This document shows positions 14,939-39,668 of a stretch of DNA of 64,000 bases, in pieces. Source of the stretch: Escherichia phage vB_EcoM_G53; sequence record MK327943.1, one strand, 5' to 3'. The position numbers and the translations under genes were made by a program. Under the pieces are notes generated by a model. The model saw only the letters and a list, made by a program, of their open reading frames with translations. It was not told the origin of the DNA and did not search any database. The first letter of the stretch is position 1. Each line of letters begins with the position of its first letter.

Positions 14939-15198
14939 TTAAAATATTCTCGTAGTTGGTCAAATCCACCAATGTGACTTCCGTCAGGAGCAAACACCTG
15001 AGGCATAGTCAATCCAACTTGTGATTCACGTCCAAGCTTAACCAGAAGCTCAGTAATTTTCTCATCATCGAACACACCTTTTTCCGGCATAACATTAATG
15101 AATTCGAATGGTTGTTTCTTAACAGTCAGCAATCGTTTCGCATTATCACAATAAATGCATTTATGAATAGTAGAGTCATACCCGTACACTTTAAACAT
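14935..15198 (-). CDS. nrdC: Glutaredoxin/thioredoxin NrdC
   Basis: 87 aa MFKVYGYDSTIHKCIYCDNAKRLLTVKKQPFEFINVMPEKGVFDDEK... closely matches T4 NrdC; start at the ATG with SD AAAGGAAAAATA. Confidence 0.92.
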   Translation of the reverse strand: MFKVYGYDSTIHKCIYCDNAKRLLTVKKQPFEFINVMPEKGVFDDEKITELLVKLGRESQVGLTMPQVFAPDGSHIGGFDQLREYFK

Positions 15199-15604
15199 TA
15201 TTTTTCCTTTCATCGATTAAATATGCAATGCCAAATACAATACATGTAATAAAACCTGTGATACAGATAGAAACCAACAATACTGTACCAAAGAACCAAA
15301 TCAAGTTATCTTTGGTAGTTTGTTTGATATCCATCTCACGAATTTCTATAGCTATCGTATCACCTTTATTCAGAAGCGTATAAAACGATGGCGATACACG
15401 CCTGTCAAAAACTCGTCCTTGCTCATCTTTATAGACTGCAATAAATTCTAATTTAGAATATTTTCCTGTAGATTGGCCTGAGATTAATTCCACTACCTCC
15501 ACAGGAATTACTTTAGTTTCCATGTAAGTATTCTGGCTGTTCCAAATGAATGGAATAATAGCAAAAACTAAAGCTGCGATAAAACAACGAAGGCTATATC
15601 TCAT
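15191..15604 (-). CDS. Hypothetical membrane protein
   Basis: 137 aa with hydrophobic helices at both ends. Confidence 0.55.
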   Translation of the reverse strand: MRYSLRCFIAALVFAIIPFIWNSQNTYMETKVIPVEVVELISGQSTGKYSKLEFIAVYKDEQGRVFDRRVSPSFYTLLNKGDTIAIEIREMDIKQTTKDNLIWFFGTVLLVSICITGFITCIVFGIAYLIDERKNNV

Positions 15605-15909
15605 TATAATGTTCTCTCAAATTTGTGGAAGCATTTACGGCATTTCAATTTCAAGTTATCAGTGGTCCAGTTAACCAATTGGACTTGGATAGTTCCACAT
15701 TCCGGACACGGGTGTTTTGCTGCCGATTTGGCAGCATTTTCACGTCGTTCAACCATTTTCATTATTTCGTTCCATGCCGGAGGAACAAACTCTTCTTCAC
15801 CGTGGATTTTATCTCGCTGAACAAATTCAATCTTTGAACTATCGTCAATAAACTTAACCAAGCCATGATTAGTGCTCATATCAATATCCTCTAAAAGACG
15901 TAGTTTCAT
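15604..15909 (-). CDS. Hypothetical protein with C-terminal zinc ribbon
   Basis: 101 aa; CPECG...17 aa...CRKC four-Cys arrangement. Confidence 0.55.
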   Translation of the reverse strand: MKLRLLEDIDMSTNHGLVKFIDDSSKIEFVQRDKIHGEEEFVPPAWNEIMKMVERRENAAKSAAKHPCPECGTIQVQLVNWTTDNLKLKCRKCFHKFERTL

Positions 15910-16856
15910 TATAACACCTCAATGGCATTTCGTAAACCATCCGCTTTCGCATTCAGAGCTTTTAACGATTTAGTTTGTTCTGCAATCTGGGCTTCGACTT
16001 CTTTCAGACGAGATTTGAGATATTCGCGTTCTTCTCTTAAGTTATCAACTTTTTCTGCTTTAGGCTCTTTAATAGGCTTAGGCTTATACTCGTTAGGGTT
16101 CTTCAACTTAATTTGAATGCGAGAACTGTATAACATTGAACCATTATCTTCGGTTTCATCATACATTTCTACCACGTCCATGATTCTTAACATCATGCGA
16201 AGTTTATAAGACAGCGAACGAATGGTTTTATTGTGCTTCTTAATTTCTTCAGCTTTCATGGTGCCGAGATTACGCGAGTAATAATAAGGAACCTGAATAT
16301 CAATTGATAATGATGCGGTACCATTACCGGTTGGTTTGAACACTGCAGTAACCCAATCTTTAGCATGAACTGTATTTGTACGATCATCGCCGCCTGTGAA
16401 TAATTTACGAGAATGTTTAAAAAGCATATTCACTTGGTTATTGAATTCACAAGCAAATTTATCAGCAAATTTAGTTTCAGGAATGGTAGTTAACCAATCA
16501 GCCAAATGAGTCTTTTTAACATCATTAACAATAGTGAATTCAACCAAATCGGTTTTAGATGTCACAGATTTAATAAAGCTCGGCTTCATAAAGTTTTTAA
16601 TGTTATCGCGAGCTACAGTAGAAGATAATAAACGAGAACGTTTGAACCATTGAAGCAGCGTCCCTAATGAATGAGAATATGCATTTTGAGTATCTTTACA
16701 GATATGATTTTCTTGGCCTGTGTATGTAAGAAAATCACGAAGAATACTATAAACCACACCTTTATGTGGAACATCAGTCCAAGCACCAGTAGCACGTTGA
16801 GCGTGAGCGTTAGCGATAAGACCGGCAAAGTATTCAATGTAATGTGAACGTGTCAT
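15909..16856 (-). CDS. Lineage-specific hypothetical protein with C-terminal coiled coil (315 aa)
   Basis: Long ORF; the last ~50 aa are heptad-like (KVDNLREEREYLKSRLKEVEAQIAEQTKSLKALNAKADGL); preceded by a promoter cassette. Confidence 0.65.
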   Translation of the reverse strand: MTRSHYIEYFAGLIANAHAQRATGAWTDVPHKGVVYSILRDFLTYTGQENHICKDTQNAYSHSLGTLLQWFKRSRLLSSTVARDNIKNFMKPSFIKSVTSKTDLVEFTIVNDVKKTHLADWLTTIPETKFADKFACEFNNQVNMLFKHSRKLFTGGDDRTNTVHAKDWVTAVFKPTGNGTASLSIDIQVPYYYSRNLGTMKAEEIKKHNKTIRSLSYKLRMMLRIMDVVEMYDETEDNGSMLYSSRIQIKLKNPNEYKPKPIKEPKAEKVDNLREEREYLKSRLKEVEAQIAEQTKSLKALNAKADGLRNAIEVL

Positions 16857-16884
16857 AATATTTTCCTCTCGTTAAGATAAATTC

Positions 16885-16914
16885 ATTATACTCCAACCAT
16901 CCTTGGTTGTAAAC
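16885..16914 (-). promoter_or_regulatory. Early-type promoter cassette (GTTTACA-17-TATAAT) with inverted repeat in the spacer
   Basis: Minus-sense GTTTACAACCAAGGATGGTTGGAGTATAAT; CAACC/GGTTG inverted repeat; near-identical copy at 17905-17933. Confidence 0.6.
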
Positions 16915-16918
16915 TGAT

Positions 16919-17878
16919 TTATGATTTTAACGCATTCATTGCGTTAAAAAGTTTAGAATACTGCAACTGGAGATTCGTTACAACACTTTGAGCATCACGA
17001 AGCTTAGCTTGTGCTTTGTCAAGTTCAACAGACAGTTGGTCCATAGTGGCCTTGATTTGATTGTAATGGTAATCTTCGACCGGAAGAAGGTCATTAGAAA
17101 CATTTAGTTTTACTGCAGACAGTTTGCACACATTTGGCGAACCTTTAAACATTGATTTACCCGAAGTAGAATAAGCACTTAGGACTTCGGCCTGTTCAAT
17201 TGGGGTCCCAGTAAGCGATGCTTCAAACAATGCATTTTCCTTTTTAAGATTTTGATAATATTCGGAGTCTTTGTGCCACCATGGCGCCGGAACCTTTTTA
17301 CCAATAGATACACGAGCCTGGATAGCGATATGGCCCTTATTCTTGATAGGGTTGATAATATTAAGCTCACGAGAATAAATTGCTTTAATCTGGTGAATAT
17401 TATCACCTAAAACTTCCAATGCTTGGTGGAATACACGAGCAACATTATCATTCTTAGGTTTATACGTAAGAGTGAACTCATTCTCACTGATAACCATGAT
17501 TTCCAACTTATCGTAAGTATATTTCAAATGTTTCATGTTAATTGCTTGAGAACGAATACGAGAAGCAATGGCCATCAGATTGTTAAGGTTATTCCGGAAC
17601 TGCTTAGCGAAATATTGTCCTTCACCGCCAATACAAAAATTACGAAGTTTCTGTTTGGCCAATAAACGGCTGAACTCGCCATTTTTAATGAACTCTTTAA
17701 CGGGTGTGTTAGTAACGCATTCAAATTGAGTAAACTTACGAGAATTAATCCCATAATATGAACAGATTTCCTCAATCTCTTCAGGAGTCTTTACAGGCAT
17801 ACGGATAGGATTAGGTCCTGGAGTATATGCGTTCGAGGTAAATTCTTTGATAAGTTCTCTACGTGTAATAAAAGCCAT
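16919..17878 (-). CDS. Lineage-specific hypothetical protein with C-terminal coiled coil (319 aa)
   Basis: Long ORF ending in a coiled-coil-like segment (DQLSVELDKAQAKLRDAQSVVTNLQLQYSKL). Confidence 0.65.
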   Translation of the reverse strand: MAFITRRELIKEFTSNAYTPGPNPIRMPVKTPEEIEEICSYYGINSRKFTQFECVTNTPVKEFIKNGEFSRLLAKQKLRNFCIGGEGQYFAKQFRNNLNNLMAIASRIRSQAINMKHLKYTYDKLEIMVISENEFTLTYKPKNDNVARVFHQALEVLGDNIHQIKAIYSRELNIINPIKNKGHIAIQARVSIGKKVPAPWWHKDSEYYQNLKKENALFEASLTGTPIEQAEVLSAYSTSGKSMFKGSPNVCKLSAVKLNVSNDLLPVEDYHYNQIKATMDQLSVELDKAQAKLRDAQSVVTNLQLQYSKLFNAMNALKS

Positions 17879-17904
17879 TTTATATTCCTCATGTTGAAAA
17901 ATTT

Positions 17905-17933
17905 ATTATACTCCAACCATCCTTGGTTGTACA
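17905..17933 (-). promoter_or_regulatory. Early-type promoter cassette, second copy
   Basis: ttatactccaaccatccttggttgtaca, identical to the 16885 copy except in the -35 region. Confidence 0.55.
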
Positions 17934-18929
17934 TCATTCCTTAAGAAGTTTTACTACTTGAATAAGATTAGCTCGTTCTGTTTTATTTTTACCGTTTAAG
18001 CCTGCTAATCGTGAGATTTCATCGTCAGTCTGTTGAATAGTTACATTAAGTTCGTTAATCAAAGCTTCAAAGTATTTGATTTGCTCAGCATGTTTTGATT
18101 CAAATTTCTGAACCGGAATAACGTCTTGGTTCAGTTCATCAATAAGGTCTTTAAGAGCATCTTCTTGGTTGATATCATATTCAACTTCTTTTATTTCTTC
18201 AACGAGCTCGTCTTTATATCTAACGTCTTTTAGTCCTGGAGCTGGTCCTGAAATCTCTTCTTTAAGAGTACAAACATACCCAATACGGTATCCAATGCCG
18301 TCTCGCTTGATATCAACTTCGTCGATAAATCCACAATGTTTAAGCCCGGAGCCGATTATGTCAAAATATCCTTGACGTCGTCCTTCAAACGTTACACGAA
18401 CTACTAAGACAGTTTTACCTGCAACCTTTTGAAGCTCACATTTATAAAAGTCAGTTGAACCTGAATAACGTGGATGAGTTTTAAAGTTCATCTGACGATC
18501 TAGGCCCATTTGTAAGCGTGCTGTTACGGCCATAAAACGTGTTTGGTTCTCGTTAAGATGAGCAACAATCCATTTCAAAGGCATTTTACACTGTTCACGG
18601 CCGAACAAATCAGTACGTCCTAGATTACGCAGGATGTTGTTAGAGTTAATCATCGACAGAACGTTAAGTTTATTCAGCGCGCTGAAGATTCCATCAGCCA
18701 TTGATTTTCCATAACCTTTACACGCTTTAATAAGTGCTCGCGGCAGATTAGTATAGATTTCAGACGGCATATGAAAATCAAATTTACTAGTCAGTAATTG
18801 ATGAACTTGGATAGCAATTTGCTCATAATTAAGTGCTCTGCGATCGTTATGGTCTTTAAACCATACTTTAATCTGTGAAGCACATAAACCGTTAATTTCA
18901 TGTTTTACCGCATCAGATGTAATGCTCAT
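17934..18929 (-). CDS. Lineage-specific hypothetical protein with C-terminal coiled coil (331 aa)
   Basis: Long ORF; C-terminal ~90 aa acidic and heptad-like. Confidence 0.65.
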   Translation of the reverse strand: MSITSDAVKHEINGLCASQIKVWFKDHNDRRALNYEQIAIQVHQLLTSKFDFHMPSEIYTNLPRALIKACKGYGKSMADGIFSALNKLNVLSMINSNNILRNLGRTDLFGREQCKMPLKWIVAHLNENQTRFMAVTARLQMGLDRQMNFKTHPRYSGSTDFYKCELQKVAGKTVLVVRVTFEGRRQGYFDIIGSGLKHCGFIDEVDIKRDGIGYRIGYVCTLKEEISGPAPGLKDVRYKDELVEEIKEVEYDINQEDALKDLIDELNQDVIPVQKFESKHAEQIKYFEALINELNVTIQQTDDEISRLAGLNGKNKTERANLIQVVKLLKE

Positions 18930-18991
18930 AACTATTTCCTCAGATTGAATTGGAACTCAAAACCATTATAACCCGTCCTTGGGTAAAGCGT

Positions 18992-19519
18992 TTATGCGTG
19001 AACCGTCTTTAAACGTTCTTCAAATTTCCGAAGAGTACTAATACGTTCTGCTTTCTGTTTTGTATAGTTTGCAATACGTTCTGAAGTGAGAGCGTATCGT
19101 TCGTTTACTGTTTCTTTCATGAAGTCAGGGATTTCACGAGAAGCTTTAATTTCATCAAACTTATCGAGTACTGCCTGGTCTTCAGCAATTAAATTTTCGT
19201 ACATCTCGATATCTTTCTTGATGAAGTCGATATCTTCCTGGGTTACTTTGGATAAACGAGATGCTTTATCCTTTTTGTACTGCTCGTTAGTTTCACGAGA
19301 CCAGAATAATGTACGTTTTTTGTTAGTGTTTTTGTAGACTTCCACAATTCCAACTGAATCGATGATAACAATCCAATTCCAGCGAGATTTGAAAATCTGA
19401 CCTCCGTCCACGGTAATCTCGTTACCATAAGCAACGTCATTAAAGAACTTACTTTGTGCTTCAGATTTAAATTTACCGTCGTTATAATTTACCAGGTTGA
19501 AAATATCTTTAGCGTTCAT
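18992..19519 (-). CDS. Hypothetical protein with C-terminal coiled coil (175 aa)
   Basis: ORF with helical charged C-terminal half. Confidence 0.6.
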   Translation of the reverse strand: MNAKDIFNLVNYNDGKFKSEAQSKFFNDVAYGNEITVDGGQIFKSRWNWIVIIDSVGIVEVYKNTNKKRTLFWSRETNEQYKKDKASRLSKVTQEDIDFIKKDIEMYENLIAEDQAVLDKFDEIKASREIPDFMKETVNERYALTSERIANYTKQKAERISTLRKFEERLKTVHA

Positions 19520-19577
19520 GTTTTACCTCCAGTAGTTGATAGGTCTATAATAACATAACCATAGACCTTGTAAACAA

Positions 19578-21069: not shown

Positions 21070-21098
21070 TAACCCCCTAAAGGGACCCGAAGGTCCCC
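21070..21098 (-). terminator. Terminator-like hairpin GGGACC-loop-GGTCCC
   Basis: Minus-sense hairpin followed by TTTAGGGGGTTAAAATATTTTT, downstream of the 21103-21369 gene. Confidence 0.5.
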
Positions 21099-21102
21099 AA
21101 AT

Positions 21103-21369
21103 TTACTTATCGCACTTAGCAACATAATTAGGCATATCACAGAATACAGAGCGAGTAACTACTCGGCCCTTTGACCATGCTTCAGTTGCTTGTCCGGCCG
21201 TGCTATTAATATAGCTTGATTTGATATTCTCAATACCCTGAGAATGTGATGCATTTACCGAACCGTTGGAAGGCCCAGAAGACTGGTTACCACCAGCTCC
21301 TGTACCTGTGGTAGCACCAACAGAGAATGCCATCATTACTGCGAATAAACCAATTACTAATTTTTTCAT
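21103..21369 (-). CDS. Small secreted protein (signal peptide predicted)
   Basis: 88 aa; MKKLVIGLFAVMMAFSVGA then Gly/Ser/Thr/Asn-rich region and two Cys near the C-terminus. Confidence 0.6.
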   Translation of the reverse strand: MKKLVIGLFAVMMAFSVGATTGTGAGGNQSSGPSNGSVNASHSQGIENIKSSYINSTAGQATEAWSKGRVVTRSVFCDMPNYVAKCDK

Positions 21370-38875: not shown

Positions 38876-39103
38876 TTATTTTTTAATCAAATTGACATAA
38901 AACTTGGCGTCTTCTGGGTGCATGCCTTCGCAGTATTCTTCAACCATGAACTTCTTAACAGCTTCATAAGGACCACTCAGATTAAGCTCAGTTGTCCAGA
39001 ACTTGGAATCTTGGGCTGAATCGATATGAACTTCAGGGTGACGGTTGCGAATAACTTCTTCTGTGTATTCATAATCAACGACATCAATACTAACTTTAGC
39101 CAT
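38876..39103 (-). CDS. Hypothetical acidic protein
   Basis: 75-aa ORF. Confidence 0.5.
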   Translation of the reverse strand: MAKVSIDVVDYEYTEEVIRNRHPEVHIDSAQDSKFWTTELNLSGPYEAVKKFMVEEYCEGMHPEDAKFYVNLIKK

Positions 39104-39164
39104 TTTGTTTTCCTCTCATTTGATTTGATAGGTCTATAGTAACACCGTCCTTGGTGTTTGTACA

Positions 39165-39668
39165 TCATTTATTTTTAATTTTGCAAATTTTTCCAGCTTC
39201 AATGCACGCAGCATAGATGATGCTCTGGGCAATTTTATTGCTAGTGGACCTTGCAATCACACTAAGAACAATTTCTTTTTCTTCACCACCACATCCCCAG
39301 CTATTTTGCCCATGTGTACCTTTAACTACGGCTGAAACTTCAACAGAACGTCCACCATCAGAAGTCTTAACATCCACAACCCAATCACCGTCTTTCTCAT
39401 TAACCTGTGGTTTATCCCAAGAAATACTAATATATGATTCACCGTCAATAGAAGTCGCCGGGTTTTTCTCTACAGTAAGACCTTCGCTTTCTAACCATTC
39501 AATAGTATTTGAGCATAAATCTGTAGAACATCTCATCGGAAAGCGGCATGATTTTTCACCTTTAGATGCAGCATCATACATCTTTTCCAAAATACGCTTT
39601 TGTACATTTTTAAAAACAACGTCACGCGATTCTTCAGATTTTTTATTCAGTTCAGTATAAAGACTCAT
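39165..39668 (-). CDS. Hypothetical protein (167 aa)
   Basis: ORF with several Cys (CRFPMRCSTDLC). Confidence 0.55.
   Translation of the reverse strand: MSLYTELNKKSEESRDVVFKNVQKRILEKMYDAASKGEKSCRFPMRCSTDLCSNTIEWLESEGLTVEKNPATSIDGESYISISWDKPQVNEKDGDWVVDVKTSDGGRSVEVSAVVKGTHGQNSWGCGGEEKEIVLSVIARSTSNKIAQSIIYAACIEAGKICKIKNK

Follow-up and report, generated by a model that had tools for sequence, protein, structure and literature searches.

A T-even accessory gene block in Escherichia phage vB_EcoM_G53 with candidate counter-defence genes and hairpin-bearing promoter elements

A block of four genes of Escherichia phage vB_EcoM_G53 (sequence record MK327943.1) was analysed within a stretch of 64,000 nucleotides, referred to here as the window, in which all positions are counted. 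A preliminary description, made from the letters of this DNA alone, had presented the block (15909-19519) as four large lineage-specific genes with C-terminal coiled coils, two of them behind near-identical promoter cassettes. The minus strand carries every gene between ~13.5 and 22.4 kb of the window, and homology and gene order identify the block as the Mosigvirus (RB69-like) counterpart of T4's nrdC.3-nrdC.8 segment, part of the nrdC-mobD hyperplastic region. Its four open reading frames (ORFs), of 315, 319, 331 and 175 amino acids (aa), have exactly the coordinates first given for them:

15909..16856, minus strand: A315, 315 aa, orthologue of T4 nrdC.3
16919..17878, minus strand: B319, 319 aa, highly diverged member of DUF7235 (PF23882)/phrog_2351
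17934..18929, minus strand: C331, 331 aa, diverged member of the T4 nrdC.6 family
18992..19519, minus strand: D175, 175 aa, orthologue of T4 nrdC.8

Gene identities were set by comparison with the T4 reference interval (BLASTP) and with the PHROG and Pfam libraries. A315 is 56% identical to T4 NrdC.3 (E 7e-120) and belongs to phrog_1435 (E 5e-104), which also holds T4 NrdC.3 and NrdC.4; its 33 close relatives are all assigned to PF26897 in precomputed Pfam. An nrdC.3 allele resembling A315 (77-79% identity, compared with the 56% of T4's own) is found in some T4-like Tequatroviruses. B319 matches PF23882 along the entire profile (positions 1-307 of 307, E 2.8e-123, 411.7 bits with a cutoff of 30), and T4 NrdC.5 scores 420.6 bits against it (E 5e-126). 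The only T4 relative of B319 is NrdC.5, with 25% identity over 308 aa; its RB69 orthologue is annotated NrdC.5, and the gene occupies the conserved slot between the nrdC.6-type and nrdC.4/.3-type genes. C331 is grouped with NrdC.6 in phrog_2257 (E 1e-127) and with PF26899, like PF26897 one of the newer families, in precomputed Pfam; NrdC.6 is also its only T4 relative (29% over 269 aa, E 5e-18), and its family comprises 741 phage records. D175 is 83% identical to T4 NrdC.8 (phrog_2274, E 3e-106). Well-characterised homologues had been set as a condition that would refute the preliminary description; the counterparts are the named T4 genes nrdC.3,.5,.6 and.8, and the function of NrdC.5 has been shown experimentally (PMC9391042).

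Each of the four ORFs has a GAGG/GGAGG Shine-Dalgarno sequence (SD), 6-9 nt 5' of its ATG. In comparisons with close relatives, the ratio of nonsynonymous to synonymous substitution rates (dN/dS) is 0.03-0.28, indicating purifying selection on all four: 0.16-0.28 for A315 and B319 and 0.03-0.08 for C331 and D175, with C331 at 0.03. The flanking nrdC.10 and nrdC.11 give 0.04-0.12 in the same comparison. The low values of the four ORFs point to expressed, constrained proteins.

The block DNA is 98.6% identical to that of vB_Eco_mar005P1 and similar Mosigvirus genomes, and it is matched in 607 phage records; the genes are conserved in hundreds of T-even phages. The lineage specificity first proposed is thus, as far as sequence matches define it, that of the T-even phages of enterobacteria and not of phage G53 alone. 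Gene order is kept across 10 T-even loci (nrdC.11,.10,.9,.8, (.7),.6-type,.5-type, (.4),.3-type,.2). Comparison with the T4 interval, as had been suggested, recovers the same slots and order, but identity to T4, which is 78-83% in the flanks, is only 25-30% in the slots of B319 (.5) and C331 (.6). Across phages, the identities of these two proteins are bimodal, either >85% or 20-33%, which indicates discrete allele classes and not gradual drift.

The block resembles the T4 genes nrdC.3,.4,.5,.6 and.8 in position, strand and order between nrdC.2 and nrdC.9/.10/.11, in PHROG and Pfam families, in having an immediate-early promoter in each gap, and as a non-essential block. It differs in that T4 has two phrog_1435 genes (nrdC.3 and nrdC.4) where there is one here, in that its nrdC.5- and nrdC.6-type genes share just 25-29% identity with those of T4 and so represent other allelic classes, and in that nrdC.7 is absent from this interval, with an nrdC.7-like gene adjoining nrdC instead. 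The latter (15191-15604, minus strand) encodes a predicted membrane protein of 137 aa with 41% identity to T4 nrdC.7. Since the T4 gene is placed between nrdC.6 and nrdC.8, this is an apparent cassette relocation.

Beyond these relatives the searches yielded little. Word-index homologue searches returned close relatives only (at least 55-80% identity), and nothing significant was found in the PDB sequence search, NCBIfam, PADLOC or Rfam; a weak NCBIfam match (E 0.022) between A315 residues 38-93 and the N-domain of a tyrosine recombinase was set aside. When the A-family profile was run exhaustively with HMMER, only 5 cluster representatives were retrieved from 1.84 billion proteins, so that deeper alignments cannot be built and the profile alignments are shallow. 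Large ORFs in the same slot of Erwinia, Enterobacter, Serratia and Acinetobacter phages were without significant profile link to A315, B319 or C331, and extension of the family that far is therefore not claimed.

The C-terminal tails were analysed with a home-made heptad scorer (not COILS or MARCOIL), with 1000 whole-protein shuffles of each sequence as the null. The criterion was a hydrophobic periodicity at positions a and d, kept up through 4 or more heptads without Pro or Gly. Three tails were delimited:

15912..16061, minus strand: A315 heptad/coiled-coil segment, residues 266-315, ending GLRNAIEVL; score reached by 0/1000 shuffles
16922..17074, minus strand: B319 heptad/coiled-coil segment, residues 269-319, ending KLFNAMNALKS; score reached by 2/1000 shuffles
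17937..18089, minus strand: C331 helical/heptad segment, residues 281-331, with a break at GLNGKNK, ending NLIQVVKLLKE

The C331 score, from windows spanning residues 281-309, is reached by 7/1000 shuffles, and that of T4 NrdC.5 residues 286-340 by none of 1000. D175 has a helical C-terminal half with a marginal heptad signal (35/1000), not significant at 1%; the heptad-like ends ascribed to all four proteins are thus retained for three of them. AlphaFold2 (AF2) monomer models contain a single long terminal helix in A315 (274-314, with predicted local distance difference test (pLDDT) values of 70-83) and in B319 (268-318, low confidence), and in Pfam the tails gave only sub-threshold matches to coiled-coil families. 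A315, B319 and C331 have a common layout, with a globular N-domain of ~220-260 aa joined by a flexible linker to a predicted C-terminal coiled coil of 45-50 residues. In A315 the folded N-domain is followed by a Pro/Lys-rich linker (~residues 252-273), in B319 the linker (~residues 220-262) is hypervariable and indel-prone even among relatives 80-94% identical overall, and in C331 it is acidic. The T4 reference nrdC.6 (275 aa; NC_000866) is without the coiled-coil tail present in its relatives (295 aa). The missing tail, KSEREKLIKIVDLLKS and a stop, can be read in another frame of the 70 nt between nrdC.6 and nrdC.5 (L001:7997-8066). Either the reference contains a frameshift, and the truncation is real, or its sequence or annotation is in error; in another T4 record the alignment runs to the end.

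The N-domains had been described as unrelated, and at the level of BLAST this stands, with no pairwise similarity among those of the window. Profile evidence points instead to distant paralogy. With the tails removed, hhalign aligns A315 and B319 with E 1e-4 over 130 columns (probability 57%), compared with 0.22-0.77 for reversed-profile controls, and two motifs occur in the same order in all three pairwise alignments. The first is FKRSRLLSSTVARDNIKNF in A315, FIKNGEFSRLLAKQKLRNF in B319 and LNKLNVLSMINSNNILRNL in C331; the second is EFNNQVNMLFKHSRKL, QFRNNLNNLMAIASRI and HLNENQTRFMAVTARL, respectively. An ORF of 292 aa in the equivalent slot of Yersinia phage phiR1-RT (g087, L012:14079-14957), ending KLQESLRTLK, matches all three families within the N-domain (A 6e-4, C 1e-3, B 0.018; C also by HMMER, 7e-7 per comparison) with positions that agree among the three, and may represent an evolutionary intermediate between these families. 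In Klebsiella phage PKO111 (NC_031095), an unannotated 324-aa ORF within a 1-kb annotation gap (L013:13154-14128) joins the A family (nrdC.3/.4), with hhalign E 9e-6 over 168 columns. The AF2 models of A315 and B319, unreliable in three dimensions, have the same order of elements: a helix with motif 1, a long helix with motif 2, a three-stranded meander, a long helix, the linker and the terminal helix. A terminal motif common to the three families, described below, adds to this evidence. A315, B319 and C331 are thus probably distant paralogues of one T-even-specific family.

The alternative closest to the preliminary description is that unrelated, effector-like N-domains were fused by domain shuffling to one homologous C-terminal oligomerisation or interaction module, in the manner of polymorphic-toxin cassettes. 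The lack of BLAST similarity among the N-domains would agree with it, as would the heptad helices that end three of the proteins, the match of phrog_26858 to the tails of both B319 and NrdC.5, and a short terminal motif: members of the A, B and C families end L-x-[NQES]-[AVS]-h-x-h-[LI]-K, at most 3 residues from the stop, and all 32 ORFs with this motif, among 514, are from these families or are the bridging Yersinia-phage ORF. The tails of the window, however, are no more alike than register-preserving shuffles once their coiled-coil character is allowed for, and the proposed common C-terminal module is not retained beyond the terminal motif. The collinear alignment of the N-domains through two common motifs, better than the reversed controls, the bridging ORF and the common order of secondary-structure elements also argue against shuffling, and whole-protein paralogy is the simpler explanation of a common tail. 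D175, with its marginal heptad signal and no terminal motif, is no help to a shuffled module either. Together these points leave domain shuffling a rather improbable origin. D175 was considered as a fourth member of the A/B/C set and rejected, given the absence of any profile link to A, B or C, the tail test and the missing motif; by the same comparisons, it is placed in a separate, well-conserved family outside the variable paralogue set.

The intergenic regions of the block contain repeated elements that resemble the promoter early stem-loops (PeSLs) of T4-type phages, in which a strong early promoter is combined with a stem-loop that dampens transcription arriving from upstream (Arbiol et al. 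2010, PMC2839356; Comeau et al. 2014, PMC4122927). The elements and the remaining promoter of the block are:

16876..16911, minus strand: PeSL-type copy 1, 36-nt repeat, 5 nt 3' of the B319 stop; predicted promoter of A315
17896..17931, minus strand: PeSL-type copy 2, overlapping the C331 stop codon region; predicted promoter of B319
18965..18990, minus strand: third, degenerate copy, 5' of C331; core match with 1 mismatch
19547..19574, minus strand: D175 promoter, ordinary T4-type early, TTTACA-N16-TATTAT then AGACCTATCAAC, without the CCAAGGAYGG hairpin
39120-39165, minus strand: fourth copy, outside the nrdC region, TGTACA-N17-TACTAT, hairpin ACACC-AAGGAC-GGTGT

The 26-mer quoted in the preliminary description is present exactly, with 2 occurrences in the 64 kb (0 expected by chance). 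The exact repeat is 27 nt long and reaches 36 nt at 94% identity; its copies flank B319 with a spacing of 1020 bp. The elements are found just 3' of the upstream stop and ~30 nt before the next SD/ATG, in stop-to-ATG gaps of 55-62 nt. They had been read as promoters in front of the genes at 16919 and 17934. With the genes on the minus strand, each repeat follows the stop codon of one of these two genes instead of preceding the gene, and the two copies are predicted to drive A315 and B319; the near-identical cassettes and their match to early promoters stand, but the genes assigned to them were the wrong ones. On the minus strand, copy 1 contains a -35 hexamer TTTACA (16913-16908), a 17-nt spacer and a -10 hexamer TATAAT (16890-16885), a promoter match of 11/12, and copy 2 contains TGTACA (17933-17928) and TATAAT (17910-17905), a match of 10/12. 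Both fit the T4/PST early consensus TTTACW-N17-TAYWAT. The spacer of copy 1 folds into the hairpin CAACCA-AGGA-TGGTTG (16909-16894; RNA -6.9 kcal/mol), which is identical in copy 2 (17929-17914).

The third copy comprises a MotA-box-like CGCTTTA (18990-18984), a hairpin ACCC-AAGGAC-GGGT (18984-18971) and a -10 hexamer TATAAT (18970-18965), that is, AAACGCTTTA-N13-TATAAT over 18990-18965, with one mismatch in the box as judged by eye against the published consensus. T4 middle promoters have a MotA box, (a/t)(a/t)(a/t)TGCTTtA, ~12 bp 5' of a sigma-70 -10 and no -35, and the arrangement suggests a middle, MotA-dependent promoter for C331, similar to the middle-promoter version of the PeSL (PmSL). 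A third early promoter at this site, between D175 and C331, was rejected, as the distance from a -35-like hexamer is only 11 nt and the MotA box fits instead. The third copy is orthologous to the T4 gap from nrdC.8 to nrdC.7, with compensatory stems relative to T4, ESCO47 and IME08. The fourth copy (~39150) lies 5' of a 75-aa ORF (38876-39103) and after a 167-aa ORF. In Mosigvirus-like contigs, the same cassette stands 5' of other small genes (L022:1331-1352 and 1888-1909; L023:601-622), with arms CAACCA/TGGTTG and CATCCA/TGGATG. These copies at other loci make the element a dispersed repeat family.

The core CCAAGGAYGG is also present in the T4 gaps from nrdC.4 to.3,.5 to.4 and.8 to.7, and the other early promoters of the region are without it. 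Around an invariant hairpin core, CA-AGGA-YG, the arms vary and remain complementary (CAACCA/TGGTTG, CATCCA/TGGATG, AGCCA/TGGCT, CCACA/TGTGG, ATACCA/TGGTAT, ACACC/GGTGT, ACCC(A)/(T)GGGT and CTTCCA/TGGAGG). In an alignment of 10 distinct copies, 3 of the 5 pairs change on both sides and 89.6% of cells are paired, compared with 16-38% when the partner is slid; the covariation score is reached by 0/500 shuffles. A scan of viral contigs with the 5' arm left unconstrained gave 10 matches, all 10 complementary and of three arm types. This covariation of the arms indicates a nucleic-acid structure and not a protein-binding site. Transcripts from an element's own promoter are without the hairpin, which is found only in read-through RNA from upstream. 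Directly after the hairpin there is a GGAG, the motif of the RegB endoribonuclease (16885-16893 and 17905-17913; on the minus strand GGAGTATAAT), also present in the T4 copy between nrdC.4 and.3 and in Dhakavirus copies. RegB could process read-through transcripts at this position, and moderate RegB cleavage at a GGAG/U motif has been reported in ORF nrdC.8.

Published PeSLs are repeated in T4-type hyperplastic regions, flank single ORFs and mediate deletion, insertion and replacement as well as the formation of mini-circles; one crossover has been mapped within the loop, middle-promoter versions (PmSL) exist, and degraded PeSLs were noted at ~47-51 kb of PST, which is the region studied here (PMC2839356; PMC4122927). 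The elements of the window share with them the intergenic location in a hyperplastic region, the T4/PST consensus, the attached stem-loop, dispersed near-identical copies that flank single ORFs, a crossover in the loop, the middle-promoter version, and a chimeric junction in a relative without the ORF. They differ in that promoter and hairpin overlap fully and in the invariant core CCAAGGAYGG, as compared with published stems of G-run/C-run or AGNA/TCNT type. Apart from the position of the stem-loop, taken up below, they fit PeSL/PmSL cassettes in their sequence.

The chimeric junction is found in the Mosigvirus ESCO47, in which the order is nrdC.8, C-type, A-type, nrdC.2 and the B319-type gene is missing. 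Its junction between the C-type and A-type genes consists of the left flank of the window's C331-B319 gap and the right flank of the B319-A315 gap, and its hairpin, CAACC...GGATG, is the only non-complementary copy, which is the expected outcome of a crossover in the core between two arm types. The synonymous divergence (dS) between ESCO47 and the window is 0.11-0.19 for A315, nrdC.2, nrdC.10 and nrdC.11, and rises to 0.6 for D175 and 1.3 for C331. This jump indicates that the same joint bounds an imported segment containing D175 and C331. The promoter/hairpin elements thus mark recombination joints, as read from these alignments, and ESCO47 carries the footprint of a cassette loss or gain. 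The cassette array of the preliminary description is upheld in this form, with independently promoted genes, a B319 gene present or absent among close relatives and the junction at the element.

The element might instead be simply a strong, conserved promoter, its inverted repeat being the site of a dimeric regulator or incidental, and the ESCO47 deletion the product of ordinary homologous recombination. Short homology does suffice for T4 recombination (PMC2839356), the invariance of the core CCAAGGAYGG is what a protein site would show, and the hairpin is short (-6 to -11 kcal/mol). A protein site, however, would keep bases and not complementarity, and compensatory arm changes are found in at least 7 variants, in early- and middle-promoter contexts. 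In addition, the motif is absent from other early promoters of the same region, the sole non-complementary copy is at the recombinant junction, and the RB49 crossover was mapped experimentally inside a PeSL loop. A plain promoter is accordingly given only a slim chance.

As to function, a deletion mutant regains the ability to infect cells carrying the SIR2-domain defence gene dsr1 when T4 nrdC.5 is supplied from a plasmid (Srikant et al. 2022, eLife, PMC9391042). T4 survives the loss of nrdC.1-6 as a block (PMC9825161), and the product of the neighbouring gene 49.2 (gp49.2) inhibits OLD (PMC13096335). For nrdC.3,.4,.6 and.8, only incidental mentions were found in the literature. The explanation towards which we lean overall is that of independently promoted T-even accessory cassettes whose products are probable counter-defence factors. 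Made immediately after infection, the proteins would be dispensable factors of host range or counter-defence. The most likely role of B319, as of T4 NrdC.5, would be to neutralise a Dsr1-type SIR2 NADase or some variant of this enzyme, and other host immunity proteins would be the targets of A315 and C331. Oligomerisation through the coiled coil would let several N-domains of each protein engage an oligomeric target at high avidity. In read-through RNA the hairpin would attenuate transcription or insulate the cassettes, and the gain, loss and allelic exchange of cassettes would make use of the short homology that promoter and hairpin provide.

Two known systems serve as models for B319. Like T4 NrdC.5, it is a full-length DUF7235 member in the same slot and with the same C-terminal coiled coil, but the two proteins are so diverged that the target could be another Dsr1 variant or another system. 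DSAD1 of an SPbeta-like phage, an inhibitor of DSR2, binds and so neutralises a SIR2-type NADase, a mechanism of the kind proposed here; it belongs to another phage group, its target is DSR2 and not Dsr1, and no sequence relationship to it was detected.

The products of the block could, on the other hand, be host-takeover factors that act early on host RNA decay, transcription or the nucleoid, with the coiled coil as a scaffold. The T4 deletion delta-tk2 (tk to nrdC.2), which spans the cluster, abolishes the phage-induced destabilisation of host mRNA, an effect not pinpointed to a gene in the review that reports it (PMC3014915). The genes are immediate-early, and the strong conservation of C331 and D175 among close relatives would suit such a role. 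Nevertheless, the only family member assayed, NrdC.5, counters a defence system, the block is dispensable on laboratory hosts, the neighbouring genes are anti-defence, and extreme divergence between genera together with presence/absence polymorphism is typical of host-range genes. We consider host takeover unlikely.

Several points count against the reading of the block as independently promoted accessory cassettes that encode related counter-defence factors. B319 is just 25% identical to T4 NrdC.5, and its target may therefore differ. Gene-wide dN/dS is below 0.3 among close relatives, without a gene-wide signature of positive selection, which was rejected on this value. The kinship of the proteins depends in part on weak links from shallow alignments of tiny families (hhalign 0.035 for B319 with C331, 0.073 for A315 with C331), the likeness of the tails does not go beyond that of the shuffles described above, and the terminal-motif pattern was defined after the sequences were seen and serves as supporting evidence only. 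AF2 confidence is low (pLDDT 58.6 for A315 and 39.6 for B319), too poor for fold assignment, and because both models are of low confidence a common fold of A315 and B319 is not demonstrated. Foldseek against BFVD returned the nrdC.3 orthologue and weak, uninformative matches to T4-type ORFs of ~320-370 aa (TM ~0.2), and against the PDB nothing below E 0.01. Finally, the stem-loop lies inside the 17-nt spacer, unlike the published ones, which are just 5' of the -35, and the hairpin has no U-tract and so is not a canonical intrinsic terminator.

A more far-reaching version of the counter-defence reading was also considered, in which nrdC.3/.4,.5 and.6 would form one fast-diversifying, immediate-early family of immune antagonists, with allele classes tuned to different defence proteins. 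Homo- and hetero-oligomers of co-expressed paralogues, formed through coiled coils with the same ending (L-x-N/Q-A-h-x-h-L-K), would then constitute a combinatorial, multivalent anti-defence hub whose subunits are swapped between phages as cassettes. We regard this as a speculative and rather doubtful extension.

Further features were noted at the borders of the block and in other genera. The T4 reference interval has nothing equivalent to an 88-aa ORF between nrdC.11 and nrdC.10 (21103-21369, minus strand), which has a hydrophobic, signal-like N-terminal segment. This ORF is followed by a tetraloop hairpin, GGGGACC-UUCG-GGUCCC, with a T-run (21071-21087, minus strand), a classic T4-type intrinsic terminator, and then by a standard early promoter for nrdC.10; in T4, the equivalent terminator element stands after nrdC.11. 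Dhakavirus-type loci have 185-280 nt between their nrdC.6-type and nrdC.5-type genes (L011:11843-12027, L009:11336-11529, L010:11435-11711), and this gap can be read as small hydrophobic peptides (e.g. MATLIISFIFGYLVIGFITVLIG...), possibly unannotated small membrane-protein genes.

The system is an instance of things already described, namely the T4 nrdC.x early genes, the NrdC.5/DUF7235 anti-Dsr1 family and the PeSL cassettes. To these are added, modestly, the probable paralogy of nrdC.3/.4,.5 and.6, a hairpin-in-spacer variant of the element supported by covariation, and a clean recombinant junction. Current understanding is unchanged, and known concepts are extended to new members. Accessory genes such as these underlie the host range of T-even phages, which are leading candidates for phage therapy. 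If B319, A315 and C331 are indeed related, as alleles or paralogues, to the Dsr1 inhibitor NrdC.5, they would offer a panel in which to look for new inhibitors of bacterial immunity and to follow their diversification. PeSL-mediated exchange of cassettes is also clearly exemplified at this natural locus, whose datable chimeric junction and compact hairpin-in-promoter design may be of use in understanding how T4-type phages shuffle genes without disturbing the expression of their neighbours.

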